Part shown: one piece after another, positions 4,341 to 55,331 of the stretch
How the letters are laid out: every line of letters starts with the position of its first letter
How positions within the stretch are numbered: the first letter of the stretch is position 1
Source of the DNA: an uncultured Eubacterium sp.
GTDB taxonomy: Bacteria > Bacillota > Clostridia > Peptostreptococcales > Anaerovoracaceae
Length of the DNA: 64,000 nt
Direction: 5' to 3'
NCBI GenBank assembly: GCA_937900695.1
Contig: CALCFD010000051.1
Coordinates: 1,953 to 65,952, forward strand
Position numbers and translations under genes: made by a program
The notes under the pieces: model-generated
Databases searched by the model: none
What the model was told of the DNA's origin: nothing
The model's input: the letters and a program-made list of their open reading frames with translations, nothing else

Positions 4341-5259
4341 ATGAAACTTGCAGACCTAAAAGGTAAAAAATTTGACAAACTTCTTGTTTTAGGTATCGAC
4401 GAAAACAACAAGTATAATGCTAGTGGTAAAATTCAGTGGAAATGTTAGTGCGACTGTGGCAATATAGTATATAAAACTTCTGATTACTTTTCTCGTAAAA
4501 CACAGTCATTAAAGGCTTGTAGCAAGCGTTGTGGCAGTTCAATACCTGAAGGAACTGTTTTTGGTAGATTGACAGTTCTAAAACTTGTAGTAGACGAAAA
4601 AGGTCATTCAAATTATTTATGTAAATGCAAGTGTGGAAATGAAGTTGTTGTCGCCGGAAATAAGTTAAAAAATGGAACAACAAAAAGTTGTGGCTGCTAC
4701 AGAAAAGAAAAAATGCAACAATTAGGCTCTTCTGGAATGAATGATATTACAAACCAACGTTTTGGGAAATTAGTAGCATTAGAACCAACAGATAAAAGAT
4801 AGAATAAATCTGTTATTTGGAAATGTAAATGTGATTGCGGTAATATTCATTATGCCTCATAGCATAATTTAAAGAACGGAGATGTAACAAGATGTAATGA
4901 CTGTAAAATAAAATCTAAAGGCGAAGAGAAAATAGTATAGTTATTGCAAGAAAATGGCATCTCTTTTGAAAGAGAAAAAACCTTTGAATCATGTAGGAAT
5001 CCTAAAACTAACAAGTTATTAAGATTTGACTTTTATGTAAACAATTCATATTTGATAGAATTTGATAGTAAACAACACTATTCTGATACACTTTTCTTTA
5101 GCGAAAATTTCAGTTTAGCTGATTAGTAGTATAGAGACAAATATAAGGAATGGTGGTGTAAAGAAAACAATATACCATTAATTCGCATACCATACACAAT
5201 ACTCGATATCCTGTCTTTTAAAGACATTGATATAAATAATAGTAAATTTATTTTAAGAT
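4341..5259 (+). CDS. Homing-endonuclease-like paralog: three Zn-ribbon repeats (W-x-C-x-C-D/E-C-G-N ... SCGC) plus C-terminal restriction-endonuclease-like domain (RFDF..IEFDxxQH..RIPY); read through multiple in-frame TAGs
   Basis: Frame-3 continuity across ORFs 4569..4802 and 4944..5126. TAG 4446-4448 falls inside the WKC-Q-CDCGN motif. Paralogs at 28104, 35694, 39403 and 63965. Confidence 0.55.
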
Positions 5260-5277
5260 AAAAAGGAGAAAAATACA

Positions 5278-6853: not shown

Positions 6854-7567
6854 ATGAAATGGTCAGAAATTCTCCCTCAAGAAGCGTTAGATTTAAGTGT
6901 TCAACTTGAAAACCATGCTTTAGAAGAGCGCTCTAAGGGGAAAGTTCTATTTCCAGAATAGGACAAAATCTTTAGAGCGCTTAATCTTACGCATCCAGAA
7001 GATGTAAAAGTATGTATAGTTGGTCAAGATCCATACCATACACCTGGAGCGGCAAATGGTTTAGCGTTTTCTATTTCGAATGGTAGTCCTATTCAACCTT
7101 CATTAAGAAATATTTTTATCGAACTTAATAGCGACTTAGGGCTACCAATTCCGCGATCAGGAGATTTAACTCCTTGGGCAGAAAAAGGAGTTTTATTACT
7201 AAATGCAAGTTTAACAGTGTATGAGCATCAAGCAAATAGTTGTGTAAATTGGGGATGGAATAAGTTTACAACAACTGTATTAAAGGCCGCGACTACACTT
7301 CCTCAACCTATTGTTTTTATGTTATGGGGAGCAAATGCGCAGGCTTTATTAAAGGATTTAAATTCAAGCCCTATGGTTTGGGATAATCCTGGTGTGGCTA
7401 GAGAGAATTTAATTAAGAAAGCGTATATTCTTTCTTCTCACCCAAGTCCTTTTAGCGTTAGTAAACAATGTAAAGGAACTCCATCTTTTAAAGGAAGTAA
7501 ACCATTCTCAACAGCGAATAATTTATTAGTATCAATGGGAGGAGAACCTATTGATTGGACTTTATAA
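6854..7567 (+). CDS. ung: Uracil-DNA glycosylase (family 1)
   Basis: Motifs VLFPEQDKIF..GQDPYH..LLLNASLTV..HPSP. One in-frame TAG about 6958 sits at the position of the conserved Q in LFP-E-Q-D. Confidence 0.7.
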
Positions 7568-17499: not shown

Positions 17500-17830
17500 G
17501 GGGATGCGTAGGTTCGACGGGGTAATGAGAAACTAGGATACACGGGTAGGCATACCGCCTTAAGGAGCAACAAAATTAAACGACAACGATTATTTTTCTA
17601 ATAACATCGCAGCTTGAGCATAGCTCGCTGTTTTAATCCCTTGGATTTCTCTATTTTCCTTTAATTAAATAGAGTGGTGGAGGCAGAGTACAACTGGTAC
17701 TGCTCTATGGTTATTAGTAGTTTCAGCTAAAACTCCATTTATAAAAGTTTAAAGTGAAACTATCGTGTAATAATATTCTAGTTATGTAGTTATTTCGGAC
17801 ACGGAGTGCGACTCTCCGTCATCTCCACCA
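17500..17830 (+). ncRNA. ssrA: tmRNA (SsrA) with tag-peptide reading frame
   Basis: 5' end ggggatgcgtaggttcgacgggg matches the tmRNA 5' consensus (GGGG..GGAUUCGACGGG). 3' end ggacacggagtgcgactctccgtcatctccacca forms a T-arm-like stem plus acceptor with G3-U70 and CCA. Internal frame gca aca aaa tta aac gac aac gat tat ttt tct aat aac atc gca gct tga at 17567-17617 encodes ATKLNDNDYFSNNIAA. Confidence 0.7.
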
Positions 17831-17916: not shown

Positions 17917-18315
17917 ATGACAGAATTAGAAAGAGGATATTTGGCTGGCATTATTGATGGTGAGGGAAGTATTACTCTCACCAAGGATAAATAGTTTAGG
18001 TATCCAGTATTAGAAGTGTCTAGTACAACATCTCAAATTGTAGAATATCTTAAAGAGCATTTTGGAGGAGTTATTTCCAAGAAAAATGAGCGTAATCCAA
18101 AATGGAAACAGGCTTATATTTGGAAGATAGAGCGGAGAAAGGCTATTTCTTTGTTAGAAGAGATTGTCAGTTATCTTAATGAACCAAAGAAAAAAGCTAG
18201 AGCTTAGTTAATAATTAAAGACTATATACGCTTAACTCCTAGAAATGGGAGATATTCTGAAGAAATAAAATAGCAAAAACTTAAATTTGAAGAAGAATTT
18301 TTCAAGATAGAATAA
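17917..18315 (+). CDS. LAGLIDADG homing endonuclease (single-motif type), TAG-containing
   Basis: MTELERGYLAGIIDGEGSITL, with RBS ggagga. In-frame TAGs joined in the same frame as ORF 18016..18207. Confidence 0.7.
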
Positions 18316-20272: not shown

Positions 20273-20314
20273 ATAAACTTAAATAGTCCAGAGGCTTAAC
20301 AGCCAATTTTATAT

Positions 20315-20430
20315 GGGGAGTTAGCTCAGTTGGTAGAGCGCGTTATAGTTGGGTCTTGACAAAGACCATAACAGCAATCGTACTTTGCTTAGGGTGCACG
20401 ATGTCACAGGTTCGAGTCCTGTACTCCCCG
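20315..20430 (+). tRNA. Aberrant tRNA gene with ~40 nt of extra structured sequence between D-arm and T-arm; identity unresolved
   Basis: Canonical acceptor ggggagt/actcccc, D-arm tagctcagttggtagagc and T-arm acagg-ttcgagt-cctgt enclose 66 nt. These include a 33-nt hairpin gttat..ataac and a 17-nt hairpin agcaa-tcgtact-ttgct. Confidence 0.4.
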
Positions 20431-20484
20431 ATTCATTAAAGAAGAAAAATGAGAAGCATAACTCAGCATAAAAATGCGCAATAT

Positions 20485-20895: not shown

Positions 20896-22026
20896 ATGAA
20901 TATTGTAAATGCTGGCGCTCGCTATCAAGTTTATGGCGAAGATGTTCAGACATATAAAGAGCTTCCAGTTGCGACTTATACGATTGGCTATCATCCTCAA
21001 ATGGGATTTTGGCTAGTTAAACATACTAATCTTGAGATTAATGAAGAGCGTATTTATGGTTCTCATTCAAGACGAGTAGACAAGATTTTTAAATCTTTTG
21101 ATATTAGTGATAGAAACTTTGGAGTTATTCTTTCTGGAAAGAAAGGAATTGGTAAGTCTCTGCTTGCGCGTATGATTGCGGACCGGGCGATTGAGCGAGG
21201 TCTACCGGTCATTATAGTGGACACCGCAATTCCAGGTATCAGTAACTTCTTAGGTTCTGTTGACCAAGAAGTAGTTATTATCTTTGACGAGTTTGAAAAA
21301 ACTTTTGCTAGAATTGGTAGCGATAACCCCGATCCGCAAGTAGAAATGCTAAGCCTGTTTGATGGAACAGATAATGGTAAGAAACTTTTCATTATTACTT
21401 GTAATGATACCAGAAAATTAAATGAGTTTCTTATTAATCGCCCTGGTCGTTTCCACTATCATTTTGAGATTGGATGTCCTACAAGCCAAGAAGTAAGAGC
21501 TTATCTCGAAGATAAACTCGATGGAGATTATCAAGAGGAAATTGAAAAAGTAATCAAGCTTTCGCAGATGGCTGATATTACTTATGATAGTTTGCGCGCT
21601 ATTGCTTTTGATTTGCGGCAAGGCTACCCTCTAGAGGAGACTCTTCTTGATTTGAATATCAACTATGAGAGAGATACATATTTTGACATCACAGTTCGTC
21701 TTACTAATGGTTGGGCTTTAACCACATATAATAAAAAGATTGACCTTTATAGTAGAGAAGATGAAGTTGTCATCTTTTACAAGAATGACATTGGAGGTAG
21801 AATTTTCCTTCGCTTTAATCCTAATAAAATCCGACTAGTAAACAATGTTCTGACACTAAAAGGAATTGATGCTAGTGTTGATTGTGATTGGGACTGTTGG
21901 GATGGTAAAATGTCCGATGAAGAGGCAGAGAGAGAGCGAAAGAATTTCAACGATAATGTCAGAGTAGAGAGTGCGACTTTTACTAAAGTTATGACATATA
22001 ACGTCAGCAAATATGTTGATGTTTAA
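20896..22026 (+). CDS. AAA+ ATPase
   Basis: Walker A GKKGIGKS, Walker B IIFDEFEK, sensor motif NRPGRFHYHF. 376 aa, no TAG. Confidence 0.6.
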   Translation: MNIVNAGARYQVYGEDVQTYKELPVATYTIGYHPQMGFWLVKHTNLEINEERIYGSHSRRVDKIFKSFDISDRNFGVILSGKKGIGKSLLARMIADRAIERGLPVIIVDTAIPGISNFLGSVDQEVVIIFDEFEKTFARIGSDNPDPQVEMLSLFDGTDNGKKLFIITCNDTRKLNEFLINRPGRFHYHFEIGCPTSQEVRAYLEDKLDGDYQEEIEKVIKLSQMADITYDSLRAIAFDLRQGYPLEETLLDLNINYERDTYFDITVRLTNGWALTTYNKKIDLYSREDEVVIFYKNDIGGRIFLRFNPNKIRLVNNVLTLKGIDASVDCDWDCWDGKMSDEEAERERKNFNDNVRVESATFTKVMTYNVSKYVDV

Positions 22027-22215: not shown

Positions 22216-22250
22216 AGAGCGCTCCTTTTGGAGCGCTCTTTTTTTTTTAT
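22216..22250 (+). terminator. Strong rho-independent terminator
   Basis: agagcgctcc ttttgg agcgctct followed by a T10 run. Confidence 0.7.
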
Positions 22251-23080: not shown

Positions 23081-23643
23081 ATGGCAAAGGTTCTTGATCA
23101 AGCTGGTCTTTCTATTTTATGGAATAGAATTACAGATAAATTTAATAACTTGAGTTTGCGCAGGGATAATGATTACAATTATTTAAGTACATTTATTCCT
23201 AAAGATGGAGAAGTATGCTTTGTTGATACATCAAGAGATGGATTAAGAGTTAAAGTGGGCGACGGTGTTACTTAGTTTGGTTCTTTACAATATCTTGATG
23301 AATAGAATAATATAATCATAATTGGTTATTTTTATAATAATCAATTTTATTATGACTTAGAACACGTCAATGTAATGATTGGATCTACTAAAAAGATTTA
23401 TGTAGATAAACAAACAAGTGTACTTTATCTATATAATGGAACAGAATATATAGAGGTAACTCAATCTATTCCTATGGCAAACAGTTCTTAGGCCGGAACA
23501 TTAAAACTTTATTCTGTTCCAGGAAAGAATGAAGATGGTACAATGACTCAAAAAGTAATTACTGAATTACTCAATGAGAAAGCTGGAATCTCTCTTGATG
23601 AAACCTAGAATGAGGTTTTAATTTTTACAACTGTTGATTAAAA
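23081..23643 (+). CDS. Tail-fibre-associated protein, read through three in-frame TAGs
   Basis: The frame of ORF 23081..23275 continues to TAA about 23641 when TAG is sense. Confidence 0.45.
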
Positions 23644-23660
23644 ATGGAGGTAAATAATTT

Positions 23661-24938
23661 ATGGCTCAAACTTATACTAACACACCTGTTCTTTCTAAAG
23701 TAAAGATTGGCGAACAGACCTATTGGTTAAAAGACGCTGATGTACGTGCCATTCTTGATACTTTTGGAACTATTGTAACTTATAATGTTTCTACCAGCGC
23801 TCTTGATGTTAATGAGAGTATTCCTAATGCTGGTCAGATTAAAGCTTATTTAGAGTCTCAAATTCAGGGCTTGACTGGTGCTATGCACTTCGCTGGTGTA
23901 GTTACTCGTGAAGGAGAAGAGAACGACCTTGAAGCTCTTGCTAGAAAGTTCCCAGATGCAAAATCCGGCGACGTAGCCGTTATGCAGGATAACAAGAAAG
24001 AGTATGTTTATGATGGAACCACTTGGAGAGAGCTCGGTGATGAAGGTCTCTATTTAACTAAAGCTGATGCTGAAGCTACTTATGTTCCTAAGACTGCTAC
24101 TATTGCTGGCGTTGATCTCCAGGATAACATTGAAGCTAACGAATTAGAGACTGCTCTTGGTCTTGGTGATCTTGCTAAAAAGGATAGCGCTACTACTACT
24201 TTAACCGATTATGCTAATGGTATCACTGGAGCTTCTTATACTCCTGCTGGTACTGTAAGTGTAACCCTGTCTTAGACCGCTACTAAGGTAGCTTCCGCAG
24301 GTAAATTTACTCCTGCTGGCACCGTTGCAGGTAATGTGACTGCTACTGGTACAGTTGCTATTGCAGCAGATAATGAGAATGGCTTCCAAGTAACTGGCAC
24401 TGTTGCTGCTCCTACTGTTACCGTAACTCCTCAAACCGTTGAGATTAGAGGTATTACTGGAGTGGGTACTCTTCCAAGTTATACAGCGGCTCAGTATACT
24501 GCTCCTAGTGTGACTGAAAGCAAGAGCGCCTTTGCTACTGCTGGTATGGTTGCTGCTGTTGATGGTACTGATACTGAAATGCTCGTAATTAGTGCTGCTG
24601 GTACCGCTGAGGCTCTTACTTCTACTGGATTTAATGCTGGTAGCTTTACCGATGGTCAGTTCAGCACTGGTACTCTTCCAACAATGGCTGAACCTACTGC
24701 TGTAATGACTGGTGCTACTGCTAGCGCTAGCGCTCCTACATTTACTGGTGGTAAGATTGCTGCTACATTCACTGGTACTCAAGCTGCTATTAGCGCTACA
24801 TTTGCTGGTACAGAGGGTGATGTAAGCGTAAGTGGTAACTATGATAAGGCTGGAGTTCAGACTTCTACCTTCTCTGGTACTGAAGCTACTATTACTCCTA
24901 CTCTTAAAACTGGGAACAAGGAAGTTACTGTTCAGTAA
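23661..24938 (+). CDS. Tail fibre protein with Thr/Ala/Gly-rich repeats, one in-frame TAG about 24276
   Basis: ORFs 23661..24275 and 24336..24938 share a frame. N-terminus KIGEQTYWLKDADVRA is tail-fibre-like. Confidence 0.55.
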
Positions 24939-25546: not shown

Positions 25547-25879
25547 ATGTTCCCGATTGACAAATACCGGTTCTATCAGACTAAGAATAAGATGATTGCT
25601 GTTTCCACTTATGCAGGTAAGACTGTAAAGGGCGTTGCTAAGTGTGACCCCAATGATACTTTTTCTGTTGAGAAGGGTAAGGAGCTTGCGGCGGCCCGAT
25701 GCGCTCTAAAGATTGCTAATAAGCGTCTTAATCGTGCCATCCGCAAGGAGAATGAGGCTAACGATGCTTTCTATCAAGCTCGGTGTCATTTGGATAAGAT
25801 GACTACTTATGCTTCTGATGCTTGGGATGCCAAGTATGATGCTGAGGATTATCTTGCTGAAGTCCTCGCTGATATGTAA
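25547..25879 (+). CDS. Hypothetical protein (about 110 aa)
   Basis: ATG 25547 after the promoter/leader and aaggagat. Confidence 0.4.
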   Translation: MFPIDKYRFYQTKNKMIAVSTYAGKTVKGVAKCDPNDTFSVEKGKELAAARCALKIANKRLNRAIRKENEANDAFYQARCHLDKMTTYASDAWDAKYDAEDYLAEVLADM

Positions 25880-25902
25880 AGGAGCTTATGCTCCTTTTTT
25901 AT

Positions 25903-45934: not shown

Positions 45935-45979
45935 TTAAAACCCAGCCTATATAGGCTGGGTTTTATTATTGGAAGGAAG

Positions 45980-46839
45980 ATGAAAATGAAATATAGTATA
46001 AAAAAACATAACCTCTATCCTTATGTTTAGATTGTCACAATACCGTTTGTAAATATTGAAAAAATTGATTTTGCCCTATGTAACCAGCCGACAGAAACTC
46101 CAGATTCTTACTATAAAAGGCAAGTCAATAAACCCGATATTATAACTAATGGAGGATTCTTTGCCATGAATAATGGAAATACTTGTTTTAGTTATAAAGA
46201 TGAAGGAAGTATTATTCAATCTGATTTTCGTCATGGAGTTGCAATTAACGGCAATAAAACACTTTTGTATACTACACTAAAAGATCATAATACTGCCAGA
46301 GATTTTATTGCAGCTTATCCTGCATTAGTTGTAGATAATAAAAAAGTAGTTATTGAAGATGGGAAAGAATTAGATTATAAAGCCCGTAGAACTTGTATCG
46401 GTTGGGATACAAATAATTATTATATTGTAACAGTAGACTCTCCAGGCTTAGCATATAAAAGTTTATAGGAAATCTTTCTTGAACTGAAAGTATAGTATGC
46501 TATTAATTTAGATGGAGGAGGATCTACTAGATTATTAATAAATGGAAAAAGAGAAACTTCTCAAATCTATGCAAGACCTGTTGACAATGTAATGTGTGTA
46601 TATCTTAAAAAAGAACAAAAAAAGATTTTTTATCGAGTTCAAGTTGGAGCCTTCGCGTCTAAAGCAAACGCAGACAAATTATTGAAAGAGTTAAAAGAAA
46701 AAGGTTTTAGTGGCTATGTTAGAAAAATAGGACTTTTTTATAAAGTCTAGCTAGGTGCTTTTTCTGTAAAATTAAATGCAGAAAGACTAAGAGATAAATT
46801 AAAAGCTGCTGGATATAATTCTTTTATTACTACGAAATA
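45980..46839 (+). CDS. Phosphodiester-glycosidase-family protein with two C-terminal SPOR repeats; cell-wall-associated, lysis cassette
   Basis: ..TNGGFFAMNNG..AYPALVVDNKKV..CIGWDTNNYYIVTV..NLDGGGSTRLLINGK.., then YRVQVGAFASKANADKLL and YKV-Q-LGAFSVKLNAERL. Several in-frame TAGs. Confidence 0.5.
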
Positions 46840-46844
46840 AAATG

Positions 46845-48017
46845 ACTAACGCACAAATTATTTGGGAATATTTTAAGAATAAAGGCTTTAGTAATTGCGG
46901 GATCGCAGGCTTAATGGGAAATCTTTATGCAGAAAGCGGTCTCATTCCAACAAATTTATAGAACTCGTATGAAAAAAAATTAAAAATGACTGACTCTGAA
47001 TATACTTATGCAGTAGATAGCAAAAGATATAAAAACTTTATAAAAGATGGAGCAGGATATGGGTTGGCGTAGTGGACATTTTGGACTAGAAAACAAAATC
47101 TTCTTTAGTTCTGTCAAAATAAAGGTAAGTCTATTGGAGATTTAAATACACAATTAGATTTTTTATATTAGGAGTTAATTACAAATTATCCTAATTTAGT
47201 TCAAATCTTAAAAACTGCCACTTCTGTTGAAGTGGCATCTACTGCTGTACTACTTTAGTTTGAACGACCGGCTGATCAAAGCTTTGCAGTTCAACAAAGA
47301 AGAACTAATTATGGCCAATAGTATTATAATAAATTTGTTAATACTTTAAATATAGTTGAAGGAGGTAATAAAATGAAATACAACAATAGCAATAAACCAC
47401 TTCAATGCATGATGACAAATAGTACCTGTTATAAACAAACTCGTACAATGTAGATTAAGGGAATTTTATGGCATAGTACAGGTGCAAATAACCCTAATTT
47501 AAAAAGATATGTCTAGCCTAGTGAAAACGATCCTAATTATAATAAGTTAATAAATAAATTAGGAAAAAATACTAGTGGAAATGATTGGAACCATATCTCT
47601 CATTAGGCTGGTTTAAACTGCTGGATTGGGAAACTTGCAGATGGAACAGTAACAACTGTTCAAACCATGCCCTGGAATTATAGACCTTGGGGATGTGGAT
47701 CAGGCTCTAAAGGCTCTTGCAATAATGGATGGATCTAGTTTGAAATTTGTGAAGATAATCTAAACAATGCAGATTATTTTAACAAGGTATATGAAGAAGC
47801 TTGCTAGATTACAGCTTATTTATGTAAAATGTATAATATTAACCCTTTAGGAACTACTACTTTAAATGGTATTAAAGTTCCTACTATTTTATGTCATGCA
47901 GATAGTCATAAACTTGGTTTAGGCTCTAATCATGGAGATGTAAATCATTGGTTTCCAAAATTTGGAAAAAGCATGGAAACAGCGAGAAAAGATGTCTATA
48001 ACTTAATGACAATTTAG
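46845..48017 (+). CDS. Endolysin: N-terminal lysozyme-like (phage tail-lysozyme type) domain plus C-terminal N-acetylmuramoyl-L-alanine amidase domain; possibly two genes with an internal start at 47373
   Basis: CGIAGLMGNLYAESGL..GYGLA-Q-WT, then ..GILWHSTGANNP..ILCHADSH..GDVNHWF. Frame 3 stays open across multiple TAGs. An internal GGAGG RBS precedes ATG 47373. Confidence 0.55.
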
Positions 48018-48032
48018 GAGGATGATGAAGAT

Positions 48033-48248
48033 ATGACTGATGAAAAATTTGCTGAACTTATGAATAATTGGCTAACAAATAAAGCTAATGAAAAAGAAAC
48101 TTGGGGCTCTGATAATCTTAAATGGGCAAACGATAATGGGATTATGGCAGGAGATGCTGCTGGTAGAATGATGCCTAATAAGTTTTGTACTAGACTTGAA
48201 ACAATAACTATGCTAAGAAGATTAGCTGAAAAGTTGGGATTAAAATGA
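48033..48248 (+). CDS. Hypothetical small protein
   Basis: 71-aa ORF. Confidence 0.35.
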   Translation: MTDEKFAELMNNWLTNKANEKETWGSDNLKWANDNGIMAGDAAGRMMPNKFCTRLETITMLRRLAEKLGLK

Positions 48249-48580
48249 AAAAATTAGAATTTTCTAAAAAACTAATAAACGATATTCGTTTATTATTATG
48301 GATTATAACTATAGCAGGTATCCTTTTAGCATTTATGTGTATTGGTATGGGCTATTTAGGAACCTTGCCTTGGATCAGTGCTCTCATAGGTTTACCATGG
48401 AGTGCTCATGGAATAGTTTGTTCATTTTATTTAAATATGGCTAAATCAGATCATAAAAAAGGTGGAATTACATATGATTTAGCTTTAAGAGAAGCAGAGT
48501 CGGTTTCTATATATGACAATTAGGCTGAAGATTTCTCTGCTCTTGATGATATTCCTGTTGACCTTAATGGTCCTATTTAA
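48245..48580 (+). CDS. Holin-like small membrane protein (two predicted TM helices), one in-frame TAG
   Basis: LLLWIITIAGILLAFMCIGMGYLGTLPWISALIGLPWSAHGIV. Extends through TAG 48521 to TAA 48578. Confidence 0.45.
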
Positions 48581-48583
48581 TTT

Positions 48584-48628
48584 AAAGGCTTAATAAGTTT
48601 TAACTTATTAAGCCTTTTATTTATTTGT
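48584..48628 (+). terminator. Rho-independent terminator after the lysis cassette
   Basis: aaaggcttaataagtt ttaa cttattaagccttt followed by a T-rich run. Confidence 0.65.
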
Positions 48629-48769
48629 AGTTTGATTTTTTTTAAAATATATGGTATCATATATTTAGAAAATAAAAGAAAAGAAATAGAAAGGATTAAA
48701 GCGATTAGAAGTTTATGAAGAATATAAAGATATATACTCTCTAAGTGGCTTTAATAAGGTGTGGTATAA

Positions 48770-49234: not shown

Positions 49235-51130
49235 ATGGCTGGAAAGTTATATGATGAAAAGAGTATCGAATCATTAAGCCCTTTGGCTTTTACAAGACTC
49301 CGTCCGCAAGTATACGCAGGCGATTGTTCCTATTCTACGCAATTGGTTGTAGAAATTATTTCCAATGCTGTAGATGAATTTAGACTTGGACATGGTAATT
49401 TAATTAATGTAACAATTAAAGACACTACTGTAATAGTAGAAGACTTCGGACAAGGGTTCTTGGTTAATTCAATAAGAGAAGATGGTAAAACTATTTTAGA
49501 GGCAGCTTTTAGTGTTCTCAATACTTCTGGTAAATATAGAGAAGATGGAACATATGAAGGTACTTCTTTAGGTAGTTTTGGCATTGGTAGTAAAATTACT
49601 ACTTATTTAAGTCATTGGCTTGAAGTTATTACTCATAGAGATGGACAATATGAACATCTTTGGTTTAAAGAAGGCGAATTTAATAAACGAGATATTGGTA
49701 AATGGGATAACAAGGAAAATCCATCTGGAACTTTAGTTCAATGGCAAGCAAGTGAAGAGTTCTTTGCTGATCCAAAACCGGAGATTGAAAAATTAAAGAA
49801 ACTATTTAAAACTATTGTCTGTCTTTGCCCCGGCTTAACTATTAAATTAGACGATAATGGGAAGAAGATTGAATTTTTCTCAAAGAATGGTCTTATGGAT
49901 CTACTGGACGATGGTGTAAAGGGAAAAGAAATTCTAAAAAATCGTTTTTCAATTAATTTTTCTGAAGGCAAAAATAAGATAGATTTAGCTCTAACTTATA
50001 CAAATAATTATTCTTCTATTATTGTTCCATATGTAAATACTGGATTAACTGAAGCTGGACCACATATTACGCAAATTAAAACTCTATTAACAAGAGAGTT
50101 TAATAAATTCTTTCGTGATAAAGGATGGTTAAAAGAAAAAGATGATAACCTAACTGGCGATGACTGTCAAGAAGGAATGTATCTAGTCTTTAATATTACA
50201 GCACCAAATGTTGGATATGATGCACAGGTAAAATCTCGTGTTACAAAGCTCGATATGAAACCGTTTACACAAGCAATAGCAGAAGAACTACAATATTGGT
50301 TTGCGGCAAATGAAAAAGAAATTAAAGGAATTGCGGATAAGGCGCTTAACGCTCGTAAAGCTAGAGAGGCTGCTCGTAAGGCAAGAGATGCCGCAAGAAA
50401 TGTAAAACCAAAAAAAGAAAATGGATTAAAAGCTAAGATGCAAATTAGCGATAAATTCATTGATTGTAAAAATAAAAATCCTAAAAATCGTAACCTACTC
50501 TTAGTAGAGGGTTTATCTGCTGGCGCCTCTGCAGTTGAAGCTCGTAATCCAGAAACAGACTGTATCTATATGCTAAGAGGTAAGATCGTTTCTCCCCTCA
50601 AAACAGCAGTAGATAAAATTCTTGCTAATCAAGAAATGTCTGATGTTATTAGAGTAATTGGGGCTGGATTTGGTTCTTCTTTTGATGTTACAAAGATGAA
50701 TTTTGATAAAATTGTAATTACTTCAGATGCTGATAGTGATGGCGCAGATATTGAATTAATGTTAATTACATTCTTTTTTACTTATATGCGTCCTCTTGTT
50801 GAAGAGGGAAAACTATATCGAGCTGTAACTCCCCTCTATATTATTCGTCAAAAGGGAAATGAATATTATTGTTACTCTGATGATGAACTCGCAGCATGGA
50901 AAGAAAATCATAGTGGTAGTTATGATTTAATTAGAGCTAAAGGTTTAGGAGAGCTAAATCCAGAGGATCTTCAAAAGGTATGTTTCTTAAATGAAAGATA
51001 TAAGCGTATTACTATTTCTGATGCAGAAAAAACAACTAAGTTACTTGAAACTTTAATGGGTAGTGCAGTCGAACCTCGTAAGCAATATATTTATGATAAT
51101 GCTAATGAGCTTGGTTTTAATTTTGAATAA
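49235..51130 (+). CDS. Type IIA DNA topoisomerase, ATPase/Toprim subunit (GyrB/ParE-like; T4 gp39-like)
   Basis: GHKL motif EIISNAVDEF, Toprim motifs LLVEGLSAGAS and SDADSDGADI. 631 aa, no TAG. Confidence 0.7.
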   Translation: MAGKLYDEKSIESLSPLAFTRLRPQVYAGDCSYSTQLVVEIISNAVDEFRLGHGNLINVTIKDTTVIVEDFGQGFLVNSIREDGKTILEAAFSVLNTSGKYREDGTYEGTSLGSFGIGSKITTYLSHWLEVITHRDGQYEHLWFKEGEFNKRDIGKWDNKENPSGTLVQWQASEEFFADPKPEIEKLKKLFKTIVCLCPGLTIKLDDNGKKIEFFSKNGLMDLLDDGVKGKEILKNRFSINFSEGKNKIDLALTYTNNYSSIIVPYVNTGLTEAGPHITQIKTLLTREFNKFFRDKGWLKEKDDNLTGDDCQEGMYLVFNITAPNVGYDAQVKSRVTKLDMKPFTQAIAEELQYWFAANEKEIKGIADKALNARKAREAARKARDAARNVKPKKENGLKAKMQISDKFIDCKNKNPKNRNLLLVEGLSAGASAVEARNPETDCIYMLRGKIVSPLKTAVDKILANQEMSDVIRVIGAGFGSSFDVTKMNFDKIVITSDADSDGADIELMLITFFFTYMRPLVEEGKLYRAVTPLYIIRQKGNEYYCYSDDELAAWKENHSGSYDLIRAKGLGELNPEDLQKVCFLNERYKRITISDAEKTTKLLETLMGSAVEPRKQYIYDNANELGFNFE

Positions 51131-51144
51131 GTGGTGGTGAAATA

Positions 51145-53511
51145 ATGAGTTTAATTACTGAAGTTGATATCCTTGATGAGGCAAAAGATAATTTCTTAAC
51201 TTATGCAGAAGAAGTTCTTACCGACAGAGCTATCCCCGCCGCAGAGGATGGTTTACTTAGCGCACAAAGAAAAATTTTATGGACAATGGAAGATTATCTA
51301 AAAATGGACAACAAGAGCAAAACAAAAAAATGTAATGCTATTGTTGGTTCAACATTGGCTACTTCTTATTTTCATGGAGATATTGCCTGTTATGGAGTGC
51401 TTAGAAAAATGGCGCAGTCTTTCTTAATGCGTTATCCTTTAATTACTGGCCAAGGCCAGTTAGGTACTCAAGAAAGTAATGATATGTTTTCTTCTTCTCG
51501 TTATACAGAAGCCAAACCTTCTCAATTCGCAGATTTGATGATGAATGACTTTAAGAAAGAAGTTGTTCCTGTAAAAGAGACATATAATGGTGAATTTATG
51601 GAACCTGTTGTATTACCATCTTTATTCCCTAATGCAATTTGCAATGGTCGTCAGGCTATCGGAATTTCTATGGCTCATAACTCTGCTCCACATAATTTAA
51701 CAGAGGTATGTAATGCAGCAATAGCCATGATTGAAAAAGGAGATCTAACTATTGATGAATTATTATCTTATATTCCAGGGCCAGATTTTCCCCTCGGCGG
51801 AACAGTATTAAATATAAAAGATGTGCGGGCTGCTTTTGAGACCGGTAAATCTAAGGTTTCTTTAAAAATTCAGGGTGATTATGAGATTAATAATCAAACT
51901 ATTACCTTTACAAGTATTCCTTATAGGACTTATAGAAACAAGATAAAAGAACAAATTGAAAAAAATATCGACATTTTTAGTGAACTATTAGAAGATTTTG
52001 ATGATGAGTCTAATATTGGACAAAACAAACTTGTTTTTCATGTAAAGCCTGGTATTTCAATTTCAAAAGCTCTTAATTCTTTATTTCTATTAACTGATTT
52101 GCAGTCAACTCTATCTTATAATATGAATTATATTGTAAATGGGACTCCTAAATTATGTTCAATGAAAAATTTACTGCATGAGTATATAAATCATCAAGAG
52201 CAAGTTCTTATTAAAGCTACAGAGTTTGATAAAAATAAAGCAGAAGCAAGAGCACATATTCTTGAAGGTTTAATTGCCGCGGTAGATAAAATTGATGAAG
52301 TCATTACATTAATTAAACAATCTGCCGGAAGAGCGGATGCTAGATCTCGATTGATAGAATTTTTATCTGTTGACGAAATTCAAGCAAATGCAATCTTGGA
52401 TATGAAACTAGGGAAATTAACTAAAATTGACAAAGAAGAATTAGTTAATGAACTACAAGAAAAAAGAGAATTTATTGCTCGGTGTATAGAAATTTTAACT
52501 AAGCAGGATATAAGAAATAACAAACTAATTAAGATAATTACTGAACTTAAAAATAAATATGGAGATGCTCGTAGAACTAAACTAACAAACACTGAAATTC
52601 CGAAAGCTACAAAAGAACAGCCAGTTATTGAAGCTAAGGATTGTGTAGTAATAGTAACTAAAAAGAATACTATAAAAAGGATTGATATTAAGAATTTTAA
52701 ACCTCAAAAAAGAAATACTACTGGGGTAAAAAATAATGGAGATATTATAGTATTCTCTCAGAAAACTAATACTCAAGATACATTAATGGTATTCTCTTCT
52801 AAAGGAAAAATGTATCGACTGTTAGTTGATAGCATTCCAGAAGGAACGAATACCTCTATCGGTGCTCCAGTTTCTAGTTTTATTGAATTTGAAAATGGAG
52901 AAACTCCTATGGCTTATACTACTTTAACTAGAGATACAGATAAGAAATTTGTATTTTTTGCTACTAAAAACGGCATTGTGAAAAAAGTTCCATTAAATGA
53001 ATATGATGCTATGAAAAGAACTGGAATTGTAGCTATTAAGCTTAAAGACGGAGATGAGTTAGCAGCAGCAACCTTTATAAATCAAGAGGAAATGATGTTA
53101 ATTACGAAAAATGGAATGTCTATAAGATTTCCAACCGCAGAAATGCCAATTTCTTCAAGAACCGCACAAGGGGTAAAAGGTATGAATGTTGATAACGAAG
53201 ATCAAGTTATTGCTGCTTTACCTATTTCAAATCCTGCGAATTGTTTATCTGTTGTTTCCATTGACGGTTTAGGAAAAAGAACAGAATTAAAAGAATTTAA
53301 TAGTCAAAACCGTGGAGGTAAAGGTCTTTCTTGCTACAAAAATCCAATTGCCGGAGCTGAGTTGGTCGCAGAGGATGATTTGCTCTTAATTTCTGGAAAT
53401 AAAACCTCTATTGTAGTTAAAGCAACCGAACTACCAATGTTAAATAGAACTTCACTTGGTAATATTATGCTGAAGAATAATGAGAAAGTAATTTCAATGT
53501 CTAAGATTTAA
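51145..53511 (+). CDS. Type IIA DNA topoisomerase, DNA-cleavage subunit (GyrA/ParC-like; T4 gp52-like)
   Basis: EDGLLSAQRKILW, and catalytic Tyr context SSRYTEAK. 788 aa, no TAG. Confidence 0.7.
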   Translation: MSLITEVDILDEAKDNFLTYAEEVLTDRAIPAAEDGLLSAQRKILWTMEDYLKMDNKSKTKKCNAIVGSTLATSYFHGDIACYGVLRKMAQSFLMRYPLITGQGQLGTQESNDMFSSSRYTEAKPSQFADLMMNDFKKEVVPVKETYNGEFMEPVVLPSLFPNAICNGRQAIGISMAHNSAPHNLTEVCNAAIAMIEKGDLTIDELLSYIPGPDFPLGGTVLNIKDVRAAFETGKSKVSLKIQGDYEINNQTITFTSIPYRTYRNKIKEQIEKNIDIFSELLEDFDDESNIGQNKLVFHVKPGISISKALNSLFLLTDLQSTLSYNMNYIVNGTPKLCSMKNLLHEYINHQEQVLIKATEFDKNKAEARAHILEGLIAAVDKIDEVITLIKQSAGRADARSRLIEFLSVDEIQANAILDMKLGKLTKIDKEELVNELQEKREFIARCIEILTKQDIRNNKLIKIITELKNKYGDARRTKLTNTEIPKATKEQPVIEAKDCVVIVTKKNTIKRIDIKNFKPQKRNTTGVKNNGDIIVFSQKTNTQDTLMVFSSKGKMYRLLVDSIPEGTNTSIGAPVSSFIEFENGETPMAYTTLTRDTDKKFVFFATKNGIVKKVPLNEYDAMKRTGIVAIKLKDGDELAAATFINQEEMMLITKNGMSIRFPTAEMPISSRTAQGVKGMNVDNEDQVIAALPISNPANCLSVVSIDGLGKRTELKEFNSQNRGGKGLSCYKNPIAGAELVAEDDLLLISGNKTSIVVKATELPMLNRTSLGNIMLKNNEKVISMSKI

Positions 53512-53610: not shown

Positions 53611-54717
53611 ATGTATCCTGAAGCTAAAATGATAGATGCTATGAAGGTATGGAAATTACCAGCAGGTAAAGAATCTATGCTTTCTGAAATTTGTCAATCT
53701 GGAGATTATTTCCTTGAAGAAAAGATTGATGGATATTGGTATGAATATGAGAAAACAGATAACTATAGCTATCTATTCTCTCGTAATACAAGTACAACTA
53801 CTGGTTTACTTTCAGAAAAAGGGGCTAATGTTCCTCATATTATGAAGGCTCTTGATTGTATGCCTAAGAATACTATTCTCATTGGAGAGATTTATTATCC
53901 TGGTGGTACGTCAAAAACGGTTAGTACTGTAATGGGGTGTCTCCCAGAACTTGCAGTTAAGAGACAAGAAAATAATCCTATTCATTACTACTTACACGAT
54001 ATTATTGAATATGATAATATCAATCTAAGTAATTTAGGTGCGGAAGACAGGTATAAAATTCTAGTAGGCGTGTGGAATAAACATAATCTATCTCAATATG
54101 ATTTTCTTAGACTCGCTCAAAAGGTAGACGAAAATCTTGAAGAAGAGATTTCAAGAATTTTAAAGTCTGGTGGAGAAGGAGTTGTCTTAAAGAAAAAGGA
54201 TTATCCGTATGCTCCTGGAAAACGTCCTGCTTGGTCTACAGTAAAAGTAAAGCAAATGGATTCTATTGATCTAATTTGTATGGGATTTTGTCCTCCTACT
54301 AAAGAATATACAGGTAAAGAATTAGATACTTGGGAATATTGGGTAATAGAGAAACAAGATGAAAATGGAGTATGGAGAGAGCAAGAAAAAGTATGCCCAT
54401 ATAAAGCGATTAAATCTCCAGAATATAGAACTTTACCTATTAGTCGTTATTATTTTTATGGATGGAATACTGCAATTAAAGTTGGTGCGTATGATAACCA
54501 AGGAGAATTAATCGAATTAGGCACGGTAAGCTCTGGATTAACAGATGATATGAAGCGCGATATGACTGAGAATCCGCAGAATTATCTTAATAAAGTTGTT
54601 TCTCTTGACTGTATGTCTATTGATAAAAAAGAACATACATTAAGACATCCAGTATTAAAGTCTTGGAGAGCAGATAAAGATGCAAAAGATTGCATTATAG
54701 ATGAAATTTTCCAATAA
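53611..54717 (+). CDS. ATP-dependent DNA ligase
   Basis: Motif I EEKIDGYW (K-x-D-G), OB-fold-like C-terminus. 368 aa. Confidence 0.6.
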   Translation: MYPEAKMIDAMKVWKLPAGKESMLSEICQSGDYFLEEKIDGYWYEYEKTDNYSYLFSRNTSTTTGLLSEKGANVPHIMKALDCMPKNTILIGEIYYPGGTSKTVSTVMGCLPELAVKRQENNPIHYYLHDIIEYDNINLSNLGAEDRYKILVGVWNKHNLSQYDFLRLAQKVDENLEEEISRILKSGGEGVVLKKKDYPYAPGKRPAWSTVKVKQMDSIDLICMGFCPPTKEYTGKELDTWEYWVIEKQDENGVWREQEKVCPYKAIKSPEYRTLPISRYYFYGWNTAIKVGAYDNQGELIELGTVSSGLTDDMKRDMTENPQNYLNKVVSLDCMSIDKKEHTLRHPVLKSWRADKDAKDCIIDEIFQ

Positions 54718-54786: not shown

Positions 54787-54990
54787 ATGACCCGAAAACA
54801 AATGAAAAAGCTCGCTAAAGAACTTTATAAATGTGAGCAGATTCATCAAAGTGACTCTTCCTCAAAGGAAGAAAAATCCCAAGCTGATAATCGTATTATG
54901 CAAATTACAAATCAGATTATGGCATTAAATGATGGGATTAATATTATGCTAGAAATTGACGTTATGGTTCAAGATTTAGCAACTAAATGA
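54787..54990 (+). CDS. Hypothetical small protein
   Basis: 67-aa ORF. Confidence 0.35.
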   Translation: MTRKQMKKLAKELYKCEQIHQSDSSSKEEKSQADNRIMQITNQIMALNDGINIMLEIDVMVQDLATK

Positions 54991-55296: not shown

Positions 55297-55331
55297 ATCG
55301 GGAAGAGTTTAATAACTCTTCCCGAATTTTT
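55297..55331 (+). terminator. Rho-independent terminator
   Basis: cgggaagag tttaataa ctcttcccg followed by a T6 run. Confidence 0.6.

Follow-up and report, generated by a model that had tools for sequence, protein, structure and literature searches.

The 64-kb stretch of DNA considered here (the window, from contig CALCFD010000051.1) is, judging from codon alignments and from the suppressor tRNA gene that it carries, phage DNA in genetic code 15, in which TAG specifies glutamine. Its in-frame TAG codons are partitioned among the genes by function, and this partition is real: homing endonucleases carry 22.2 TAG per 1000 codons, lysis genes 19.7, tail-fibre-like genes 8.2, and the gene starting at position 55337 as many as 49.7, against 0.98 in the replication and nucleotide genes (4 TAG in 4,091 codons) and 0.27 in a group of RNA-repair, vault and SPFH genes. 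The partition is conserved in related phages and coincides with the layout of promoters and terminators. On balance, we regard it as probable that TAG is excluded from the genes that have to be translated under the standard code of the host, and is maintained in separately regulated late or dangerous genes as a block that would hold until suppression becomes effective.

Evidence for TAG as a glutamine codon

Genes were called on the plus strand with TAA and TGA as the sole stops, and were annotated with Pfam, PHROGs and NCBIfam; all window coordinates given below refer to this strand. The window has a GC content of 35.8% and its long open reading frames (ORFs) lie nearly all on the plus strand. 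The 71 genes comprise 16,197 codons, among them 92 in-frame TAG, 306 CAA and 155 CAG. At least one TAG is present in 25 of the 71, and Pfam and PHROG domains run across the TAGs. When TAG is read as sense, the ORFs of 100 codons or more on the two strands together add up to 1.16 times the length of the window, as against 0.82 times otherwise, and TAG-bearing ORFs extend over 220–470 codons uninterrupted by TAA or TGA in this AT-rich genome. TAA terminates the large majority of the genes and TGA the few others, as the manner of calling dictates.

Relatives were collected with a GyrA search, which yielded 64 IMG/VR loci of 51–85% identity on contigs of up to ~165 kb, the longest being mostly 130–150 kb; many of these loci are near-duplicates, so that the orthologue counts given throughout are not independent. 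Across ~1,515 aligned orthologue positions, the TAGs of the window correspond to CAA or CAG in 513 cases and to TAG in 244, with Glu, Lys and Arg, the usual neighbours of Gln, being the next commonest. The Zn-ribbon endonuclease paralogues share the motifs G-Q-[RK]-F-G and D-G-x-Q-H, whose conserved Gln is encoded by TAG in three copies and by CAA or CAG in others. The C-termini of the orthologues are followed by TAA or TGA, and no locus has more than one gene in which the first stop is TAG.

A suppressor tRNA with the anticodon CUA (tRNA-CUA) is encoded at 26916-26990 (ARAGORN; Rfam tRNA, 59.3 bits), and shows a U1.U72 mismatch and G73. In a comparison with the phage's own tRNA-Gln genes (UUG and CUG) it is not recognisable as a close copy of either; hence it is from the alignment of TAG with Gln codons, and not from resemblance to these genes, that we infer its charging with glutamine. 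The codon alignments and this gene together bear out the view, implied in an earlier interpretation from the sequence alone (the sequence-only reading), that the phage has recoded TAG to Gln with a tRNA-CUA of its own. Insertion of Gln at TAG has been shown by proteomics in crAss-like phages (PMC9523058). The window contains 28 tRNA genes, tRNA-CUA included, and no release factor or tRNA synthetase is present among its annotated genes.

The tRNA-CUA gene has TAG-free ORFs on either side, and ~430 nt upstream of it is a consensus promoter of the sigma-A/sigma-70 type (26461-26489, TTGACA-17-TG-TATAAT), which has a 12/12 hexamer match and a TG extension, and scores 36.7 bits with a position weight matrix (PWM) as against a shuffle maximum of 12.8. 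Because it is downstream of such a host-type promoter, tRNA-CUA is probably made by the host polymerase from the start of infection, which argues against the late-appearing suppressor that had been envisaged. Given an early tRNA-CUA, any delay must arise from its accumulation or from other layers of control.

Three genes, starting at 13348, 15835 and 28104, have TAG as the last codon right before TAA (14149-14151, 16321-16323 and 28839-28841), where ~0.4 such ends would be expected (Poisson p = 0.008). These may be relics of former TAG stops that were backed by TAA, or may ensure correct termination in both codes. The tRNA array additionally contains a full-length tmRNA (17500-17830; Rfam RF00023, 69.9 bits) for which there was no ARAGORN call. 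A further Rfam tRNA match of 116 nt at 20314-20431 resembles tRNA-Lys(CUU) in the intron mode of ARAGORN, with 41 nt inserted into the anticodon loop, and may be an intron-containing or a disrupted gene.

Distribution of TAG among the genes

The number of TAGs per gene is far from uniform (X2 = 339 against 70 expected), with none of 100,000 multinomial simulations reaching as high a value. The same is seen when the number of Gln-type codons per gene is taken as given (X2 = 179 against 58 expected; 0 of 20,000 simulations as high). The heterogeneity remains significant after removal of the endonucleases (p = 1e-5), and after removal of both these and the lysis genes (p = 0.0013). When counted by class under TAA/TGA-only stops, TAG is enriched relative to the replication genes in the endonucleases (Fisher p = 1e-16) and in the lysis genes (p = 3e-10), the enrichment in lysis, endonuclease and some nuclease genes being 20- to 50-fold. 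As a share of all Gln codons, TAG accounts for 0.49 in the lysis genes versus 0.03 in the replication genes. The first TAG of the TAG-dense genes, judged by eye, stands about where a uniform spread would place it. The strong partition by function claimed in the sequence-only reading is thus upheld, including the high density in tail and lysis genes. The range to which it had been assigned, 49235-53511, does contain both topoisomerase genes, but the pattern itself spans the whole window.

These two genes encode a GyrB-like (49235-51130, 631 aa; Pfam DNA_gyraseB, Toprim and DNA_gyraseB_C) and a GyrA-like (51145-53511, 788 aa; Pfam DNA_topoisoIV, E = 4e-105, and DNA_gyraseA_C) subunit of a type IIA topoisomerase, with 16 and 26 Gln codons respectively, none of which is TAG. 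As the two genes contain 30 and 28 off-frame TAG trinucleotides, the absence is specific to the reading frame. A recount confirms that TAG is likewise absent from the genes for an MVP-like protein (30786-33215, 809 aa), a DUF2828/DUF7788 protein that had been labelled 'TROVE-like' (28878-30383, 501 aa), a CAG-rich flotillin/SPFH protein (42245-43771, 508 aa; Pfam Band_7 and Flot), an AAA ATPase (20896-22026) and an RNA ligase (38063-39343); the DNA ligase gene (53611-54717) also has none.

The lysis cassette consists of a cell-wall protein with NAGPA and SPOR domains (45980-46840; Pfam; 4 TAG in 286 codons), an endolysin with Phage_lysozyme2 and Amidase_2 domains (46842-48248; Pfam; 12 TAG in 468 codons, amounting to 50% of its Gln codons), and a small transmembrane protein (48245-48580) recognised from its position and hydrophobic segments. 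The latter has no family match in the searched databases, is holin-like by position, and contains one TAG, with 0–4 in its orthologues. Two tail-fibre-like genes (23081-24938; weak Mtd_N match) have 4 and 1 TAG.

Conservation of the partition in related phages

The partition is kept across the clade: TAG is absent from GyrB in 57/57 orthologues, from GyrA in 61/63 and from DNA ligase in 48/48, while the endolysin has 1–11 TAG in 26/26. Over the ~30 closest loci, the replication genes have 0–4 TAG per ~3,500 codons and the lysis genes 3–14 per 540–865. The replication class is entirely TAG-free in ~45 of the 64 loci and has a maximum of 4 in any of them. Small genes of unknown function show the same constancy, those starting at 40961, 55016 and 57206 being TAG-free in nearly all of their 33–59 orthologues, whereas the 67-codon gene at 54787 has TAG in 30/36.

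Several more distant loci with GyrA identities of 54–60% (L040, L042-L044, L048, L056, L060 and L061) have no in-frame TAG in any orthologue, and TAG is occasionally the first stop in them. By these features they look like standard-code or barely recoded sister lineages, and could serve to date the change of code. Among cultured phages, the best relatives are SPbeta-like Bacillus phages, with 39% identity in DnaB; tblastn searches of a phage collection with GyrA and DnaB recovered only matches below 40% identity, and INPHARED yielded nothing in a megablast with the topoisomerase region. The closest relative (contig IMGVR_UViG_3300045988_075249) was walked downstream of the primase gene: no recognisable capsid module, capsid or portal gene was encountered along the walked part, which includes a minus-strand block of unknown proteins.

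The replication and nucleotide genes that do contain TAG have one each, as had been noted, namely DnaB helicase (60934-62487; Pfam; codon 98), a primase-like protein (62793-63896; NCBIfam PRK08624, dnaG domain; codon 183), ThyX (56526-57152; Pfam Thy1; codon 25) and uracil-DNA glycosylase (UDG, 6854-7567; Pfam UDG; codon 36). The suggestion that a single TAG of this kind serves as a timing valve does not survive comparison with the orthologues. At codon 98 of DnaB, 42 orthologues have CAA (21), GAA (11), CAG (3) or other codons, and none has TAG; codon 183 of the primase is CAA or CAG in 20/21, with no TAG anywhere in the 21 genes; and codon 36 of UDG is CAA in 2/2. The TAG of ThyX is common to 4 of 7 close orthologues. 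The other three TAGs seem to be sporadic substitutions of recent origin, by which TAG would be creeping into early genes.

TAG load and transcription-unit layout

A plus-strand motif, TTGAnA-N17-TGATATAAT-ATTTATAGAAAG, occurs at 29 sites in the window (e.g. 9299, 9752, 11013, 14729, 19297, 33241, 36479, 40130, 57141 and 60353) with scores of 20–50 bits, against a shuffle maximum of 12.8. The sites usually precede a strong Shine-Dalgarno sequence of the AAGGAAGT type, and often come right after a terminator hairpin. Judged by its sequence, the motif is a textbook extended -10 promoter of the sigma-A/sigma-70 type, which fits the Firmicute phages as nearest cultured relatives. It also has a conserved ATTTATAGAAAG on the downstream side of the -10 element.

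As a rule, a terminator-like hairpin has such a promoter right behind it (2961, 30390, 40112, 43777, 48584 and 53508), and the junctions so formed are very regular. Hairpins with no following promoter, in contrast, are found at four sites, exactly where the non-endonuclease TAG-rich genes start. Examples are the hairpins before the tail-fibre-like genes (22216-22239), with no sigma-A-like promoter between, before a PD-(D/E)XK nuclease (25878-25897), with no promoter after it, and before the lysis cassette (45937-45964). The last is of the terminator type with a T-run (-21.8 kcal/mol, z = -5.1) and is likewise not followed by a sigma-A-like promoter; it shows compensatory changes in two relatives (L001 and L017), and a hairpin with a T-run also stands before the endolysin in two more (L003 and L020). 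The cassette is closed by a terminator with a 15-pair stem and a T-run (48584-48617), directly after which comes a sigma-A-like promoter (48624-48675; PWM 31.8 bits, TTGATT-17-TG-TATCAT) for RNase H, GyrB and GyrA.

Sorting of the non-endonuclease genes by their nearest upstream signal gives 11 TAG in 11,760 codons (0.9 per 1000) where that signal is a promoter, versus 42 in 2,680 (15.7 per 1000) where it is a promoterless terminator, corresponding to an odds ratio of 17 (gene-label permutation p = 5e-4). A fully automatic rerun gave 4.3 for promoter-fed versus 17.5 TAG per 1000 for terminator-fed genes in the window, a 4-fold difference, and ~0–3 versus 7–22, or about 10-fold, in most relatives whose GyrA is at least 66% identical; there was no signal in the weakly recoded lineages. 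The TAG load therefore coincides with the layout of the transcription units, as expected for a separately regulated, probably late class of genes.

Homing endonucleases, the 55337 gene and the vault-like module

The homing endonucleases are free-standing, and the window has no Rfam match to a group I intron. One of them is a GIY-YIG and NUMOD1 protein (57639-58301; Pfam), in which 9 of 220 codons are TAG, representing 90% of its Gln codons; an earlier figure of about 12 was an overcount. Zn-ribbon/HNH-like paralogues, identified from PHROG matches (374/559/9084 in the case of the first) and paralogue alignment, are encoded at 4341-5261 (6 TAG), 28104-28841 (5 TAG, the last directly before TAA) and 39403-40113 (5 TAG). 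A fourth paralogue (35680-36472; paralogue alignment and ORF list) is split between two overlapping frames: the called ORF 35710-36006, of 98 codons, has 5 TAG, and the other frame, 35969-36472, has a further 4. This is either a pseudogene that has suffered a frameshift or an instance of programmed frameshifting. These counts (6, 5, 5 and 5 per called ORF) agree with the 5–8 previously given for each paralogue. The remaining members are two GIY-YIG endonucleases, one in the tRNA array (13348-14151; Pfam, PHROG; 2 TAG, one directly before TAA) and one at 16455-17216 (Pfam/PHROG; 4 TAG), and a LAGLIDADG-type endonuclease (17917-18315; Pfam/PHROG; 3 TAG).

Each endonuclease has only 3–7 distant matches in the 64 related loci, the gene at 57639 only 5, and because of this sporadic distribution we read them as mobile genes. 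They have the least typical codon usage among the called genes. Promoter-fed units hold 7 of the 8 endonuclease genes. The predicted accessibility of their ribosome-binding sites (RBS) has a median of 0.34 versus 0.52 in other genes (p = 6e-4), and genes with at least 2 TAG show a median of 0.39 versus 0.52 (p = 6e-4). A clear hairpin sequestering the Shine-Dalgarno sequence is seen in one case, the gene at 39403 (-18.8 kcal/mol, z = -5.3). Candidate hairpins at 13322-13341 and before 57639 proved no better than shuffles (z ~ -1.6), and were not relied on. In two of the relatives (L027 and L062, 9294-9990), a GIY-YIG endonuclease gene is situated between the GyrB-like and GyrA-like genes; the gap between topoisomerase subunits is a typical homing site.

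The most TAG-dense gene of the window (55337-56245; 15 TAG in 302 codons, where ~14 had been reported earlier) encodes a transmembrane helix, a Gln-rich coiled coil and a C-terminal GIY-YIG domain (Pfam GIY-YIG; TIGR01453 domain, E = 2e-18). It had been taken for a selfish homing endonuclease, an interpretation that we reject, as it occupies the same syntenic position in 54/64 related loci, and as only its GIY-YIG catalytic domain matches known families, with no match to a DNA-binding module in the N-terminal region formed by the helix and coiled coil. Its orthologues have 0–24 TAG, and the family of ~290 codons has 8–15 in the ~30 closest loci. Orthologues of ~59% identity contain 12–14 TAG, of which only 3–5 are at the sites used in the window, and one relative (L032) has 9, none of them shared. 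Thus TAG sites turn over in this family while the density at the level of the gene is kept. The product diverges fast, with 59% identity where GyrA has 80%.

The start codon of the 55337 gene is abutted by a terminator hairpin (55298-55325) with a 12-pair stem and a T-run (-20 kcal/mol, z = -5.7). A GC-rich hairpin with a T-run precedes the orthologue in 12 of the 13 loci inspected (L001, L003, L014, L017, L020, L027, L031, L032, L041, L042, L049 and L060, but not L036), with differing, compensatory stem sequences. No Shine-Dalgarno sequence is visible before the gene in the recoded lineages, whereas one is present in two non-recoded ones (L042 and L060).

Among the TAG-free genes, the assignment of the MVP-like protein is based on Pfam MVP_shoulder and Vault_3, and on a match to the major vault protein in the PDB (E = 1e-14). 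It is encoded ~400 nt downstream of the DUF2828/DUF7788 gene (Pfam; PHROG 850, 'RNA-binding protein'), with one small ORF between them. A search of PDB sequences gave no link of the DUF2828/DUF7788 protein to Ro60/TROVE, and 'TROVE-like' is retained as an earlier label only. The MVP-like gene is followed by an RNA-repair-like set (33836-43771) that comprises a nucleotidyltransferase, three metallophosphoesterases, the RNA ligase, an AAA_33 kinase and the flotillin/SPFH protein. All these genes, including the two upstream ones, are TAG-free and CAG-rich. The occurrence of such a vault-like module in a phage merits a separate study.

Proposed explanation and its alternatives

According to the explanation that we favour, the source would be a phage of ~130–150 kb with a Firmicute-type host, whose code 15 is read by its own tRNA-CUA. 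Purifying selection would keep TAG out of the genes that need standard-code translation by the host, and the TAG-purged units would be those fed by strong sigma-A-type host promoters, namely replication, nucleotide metabolism, the RNA-repair/vault-like cluster and small early ORFs. TAG would be tolerated, and its load maintained at the level of the gene, in the lysis cassette, the tail-fibre-like genes, the membrane-anchored GIY-YIG nuclease and other nucleases, and the free-standing homing endonucleases inside early units would belong to the same tolerant class. Full-length TAG-rich proteins would be obtained only once tRNA-CUA out-competes release factor 1 (RF1). Each added TAG would multiply the block, making TAG both a translational gate and an attenuator, which would be layered on terminators in the non-endonuclease genes and on RBS hairpins in the endonucleases. 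With tRNA-CUA made early, the gate would open through accumulation and competition with RF1, and terminators and RBS structures would add further delay or attenuation. Of the original proposal that suppressor availability gates late and selfish genes, the partition is retained, and is backed by its conservation and its relation to the layout, but the single-TAG valve, the late suppressor and the 55337 gene as a selfish element are not.

Several observations weigh against this explanation. One concerns composition: TAG density declines as the GC content at third codon positions rises (GC3; rho = -0.59), and likewise as CAG becomes denser (rho = -0.42). Of the 92 TAGs, 90 are in genes with a GC3 of 0.26 or less. 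The MVP-like, DUF2828/DUF7788 and flotillin genes, and the small genes of the first 4 kb, prefer CAG and have a higher GC3 (CAG 11 versus CAA 1 in the DUF2828/DUF7788 gene, and 24 versus 4 in the MVP-like gene), so that the absence of TAG from them can be compositional or historical. The zero counts in the MVP, TROVE-like and flotillin genes are thus true, but as a sign of regulation they are confounded. Composition cannot, however, explain the TAG-poor replication genes, because the topoisomerase, ligase, RNase H, DnaB and primase genes have third positions as AT-rich as those of the TAG-dense genes.

Further points on the same side concern the mechanism and the tests. The host-type promoter of tRNA-CUA means that a delay limited by the suppressor may be short, and the base 3' of TAG does not differ from that 3' of CAA/CAG (p = 0.19), which gives no sign of a special read-through context. 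The terminator list behind the odds ratio of 17 was partly hand-picked, and four more divergent loci show the opposite trend between promoter-fed and terminator-fed genes. A test of whether the first gene after a promoter is TAG-poor was weak (Fisher p = 0.02-0.03; permutation p = 0.086), and was replaced by the nearest-upstream-signal analysis. Downstream of its primase gene, the closest relative has a RecJ-like gene (L068, 11955-13139) with 9 TAG in 394 codons and a RuvC-like resolvase gene (L121, 15261-15740) with 7 in 159, as against 1 in PolIII-alpha (1300 aa) and 0 in NrdD (726 aa), these four identities coming from reading of the sequences and not from a family search. A division into replication and late genes is therefore too coarse. 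Finally, 'early' and 'late' are assigned here from motifs and gene function, and the temporal order and the TAG-limited expression would have to be understood in that sense.

An alternative, to which we give a lesser but still appreciable chance, is that TAG acts as a limiter of dose and not as a timer. Suppression would be incomplete in the face of RF1, with the yield falling multiplicatively with the number of TAGs, and TAG would be selected or tolerated in toxic or low-copy proteins, such as nucleases, homing endonucleases, PIN-PhoH proteins, lysins and holin-like proteins, and purged from abundant ones. Nearly every TAG-dense gene indeed codes for a nuclease or a protein active on the cell wall or membrane, and the early-type promoter of the suppressor tRNA weakens a pure timing model. 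In the 55337 gene, a terminator and 15 TAGs are combined with the lack of a visible Shine-Dalgarno sequence, all of which would lower the amount of product; this points the same way, as does the upkeep of gene-level TAG density despite the turnover of sites. Yet the tail-fibre-like genes are not obviously toxic, and a limiter of dose alone leaves unexplained why the TAG-rich non-endonuclease genes stand behind promoterless terminators. The two models are compatible, and are inseparable by sequence.

It is improbable, in our estimation, that the TAGs have no regulatory role at all and were produced by CAG-to-TAG mutation under AT pressure, with drift in weakly constrained, fast-evolving or exchanged genes, while strongly constrained genes and recent arrivals from standard-code donors stayed TAG-free. 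Such a process would account for the concentration of TAG in low-GC3 genes and the correlations given above, for the near absence of CAG from TAG-rich genes, for the atypical codon usage of the endonucleases and the rapid evolution of the 55337 product, for the lineage-specific single TAGs of DnaB, primase and UDG, and for the TAG loads of the related lineages, which are graded upward from zero. However, the genes with the lowest GC3, GyrB and GyrA (0.18–0.20), have no TAG among their 42 Gln codons, and there are only two TAGs among ~120 orthologues. The persistently TAG-free small genes at 40961, 55016 and 57206 are set against the 67-codon gene at 54787 with its recurrent TAG, and the endolysin, although essential and conserved, uses TAG for half of its Gln codons. 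The link to terminators and promoters is also not predicted by drift.

That TAG is still a stop, with the interrupted frames being pseudogenes or sets of short genes and the partition one of intact versus decayed genes, can be dismissed: the frame-split paralogue at 35680-36472 and the three genes with TAG right before TAA would suit it, but ORFs of 220–470 codons free of TAA and TGA are unexpected by chance at 36% GC, Pfam domains continue across the TAGs, the TAG positions are matched by Gln in orthologues and paralogues, a tRNA-CUA is encoded, and the endolysin would fall into 13 pieces, and be broken up in every one of 26 relatives.

Comparison with known systems and implications

In the parts of their account drawn on here, Borges et al. 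(bioRxiv 10.1101/2021.08.26.457843; later Nat Microbiol 2022) describe TAG-recoded crAss-like phages, TGA-recoded Agate phages and others, in which the reassigned stop is preferred in lysis and structural genes and replication genes often stay in the standard code. They count a homing endonuclease among the most recoded families of the Agate phages, and propose that suppressor tRNAs may switch the code during infection. On these points the present phage resembles theirs in having a phage-encoded suppressor tRNA, in-frame stops in only part of the genes, close lineages with little or no recoding, lysis genes that favour the recoded stop, and replication genes that are compatible with the standard code. 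It differs in belonging to another clade, with genomes of ~130–150 kb, SPbeta-like cultured relatives and no near INPHARED match; moreover, its endonucleases are free-standing and numerous, and neither a release factor nor a tRNA synthetase was seen in this window. The link to terminators that lack a promoter, and a membrane-anchored GIY-YIG protein as the top user of TAG, do not figure in those parts of the account. The window thus apparently represents a further, undescribed Firmicute-type phage clade that shows a phenomenon already described by these authors.

The human-gut phage phAss-1, of the proposed Phassvirus (PMC10607447), has a genome of ~136 kb, many tRNAs, tRNA-CUA suppressors and TAG as Gln, with 28% of its ORFs, characteristic phage genes included, interrupted by TAG. 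By description it is like the present phage in its range of genome size, its tRNA-CUA and the meaning of TAG; its description gives no TAG statistics per class, and here the phage collection yields no GyrA or DnaB match above 40%.

In T4, the endonucleases I-TevI, I-TevII, I-TevIII, SegB and MobE are encoded on early or middle polycistronic units and silenced until late by hairpins that sequester the RBS (PMC2988022). The endonucleases of the window are comparable in being inside promoter-fed units, in their lower predicted RBS accessibility and in the one strong hairpin that covers a Shine-Dalgarno sequence; unlike in T4, which uses the standard code, their in-frame TAGs would add a second, suppressor-dependent block. 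A parallel to late control in lambda may also be drawn for the lysis cassette, which is right behind a strong terminator-like hairpin, conserved with compensatory changes, and has no host-type promoter. In lambda, with Q, pR' and tR', a terminator directly before the lysis genes stops transcription until antitermination sets in. The resemblance to lambda is one of position only.

As an independent clade, these phages add to the evidence that the recoding of stop codons is applied to individual genes and not genome-wide, and they provide new support in that the TAG load follows the promoter and terminator layout, and is kept per gene while the sites turn over. They further add a membrane-anchored GIY-YIG core gene as the top user of TAG, and a negative result that corrects the attractive but unsupported idea of single TAGs as timing valves in replication genes. 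In practical terms, genomes of this kind need gene calling in code 15, as endolysin, nuclease and endonuclease genes are otherwise shattered.

More tentatively, it is possible that a promoterless terminator, a weak or hairpin-masked RBS and a selected, gene-specific amber load are stacked into a quantitative gate on dangerous proteins. If so, this gate would set both the timing and the amount of the lysin, the membrane-anchored GIY-YIG nuclease and the homing endonucleases. The selfish endonucleases residing in early operons would then have adopted the amber gate of the phage, so as to be expressed once they are harmless to the phage that hosts them.

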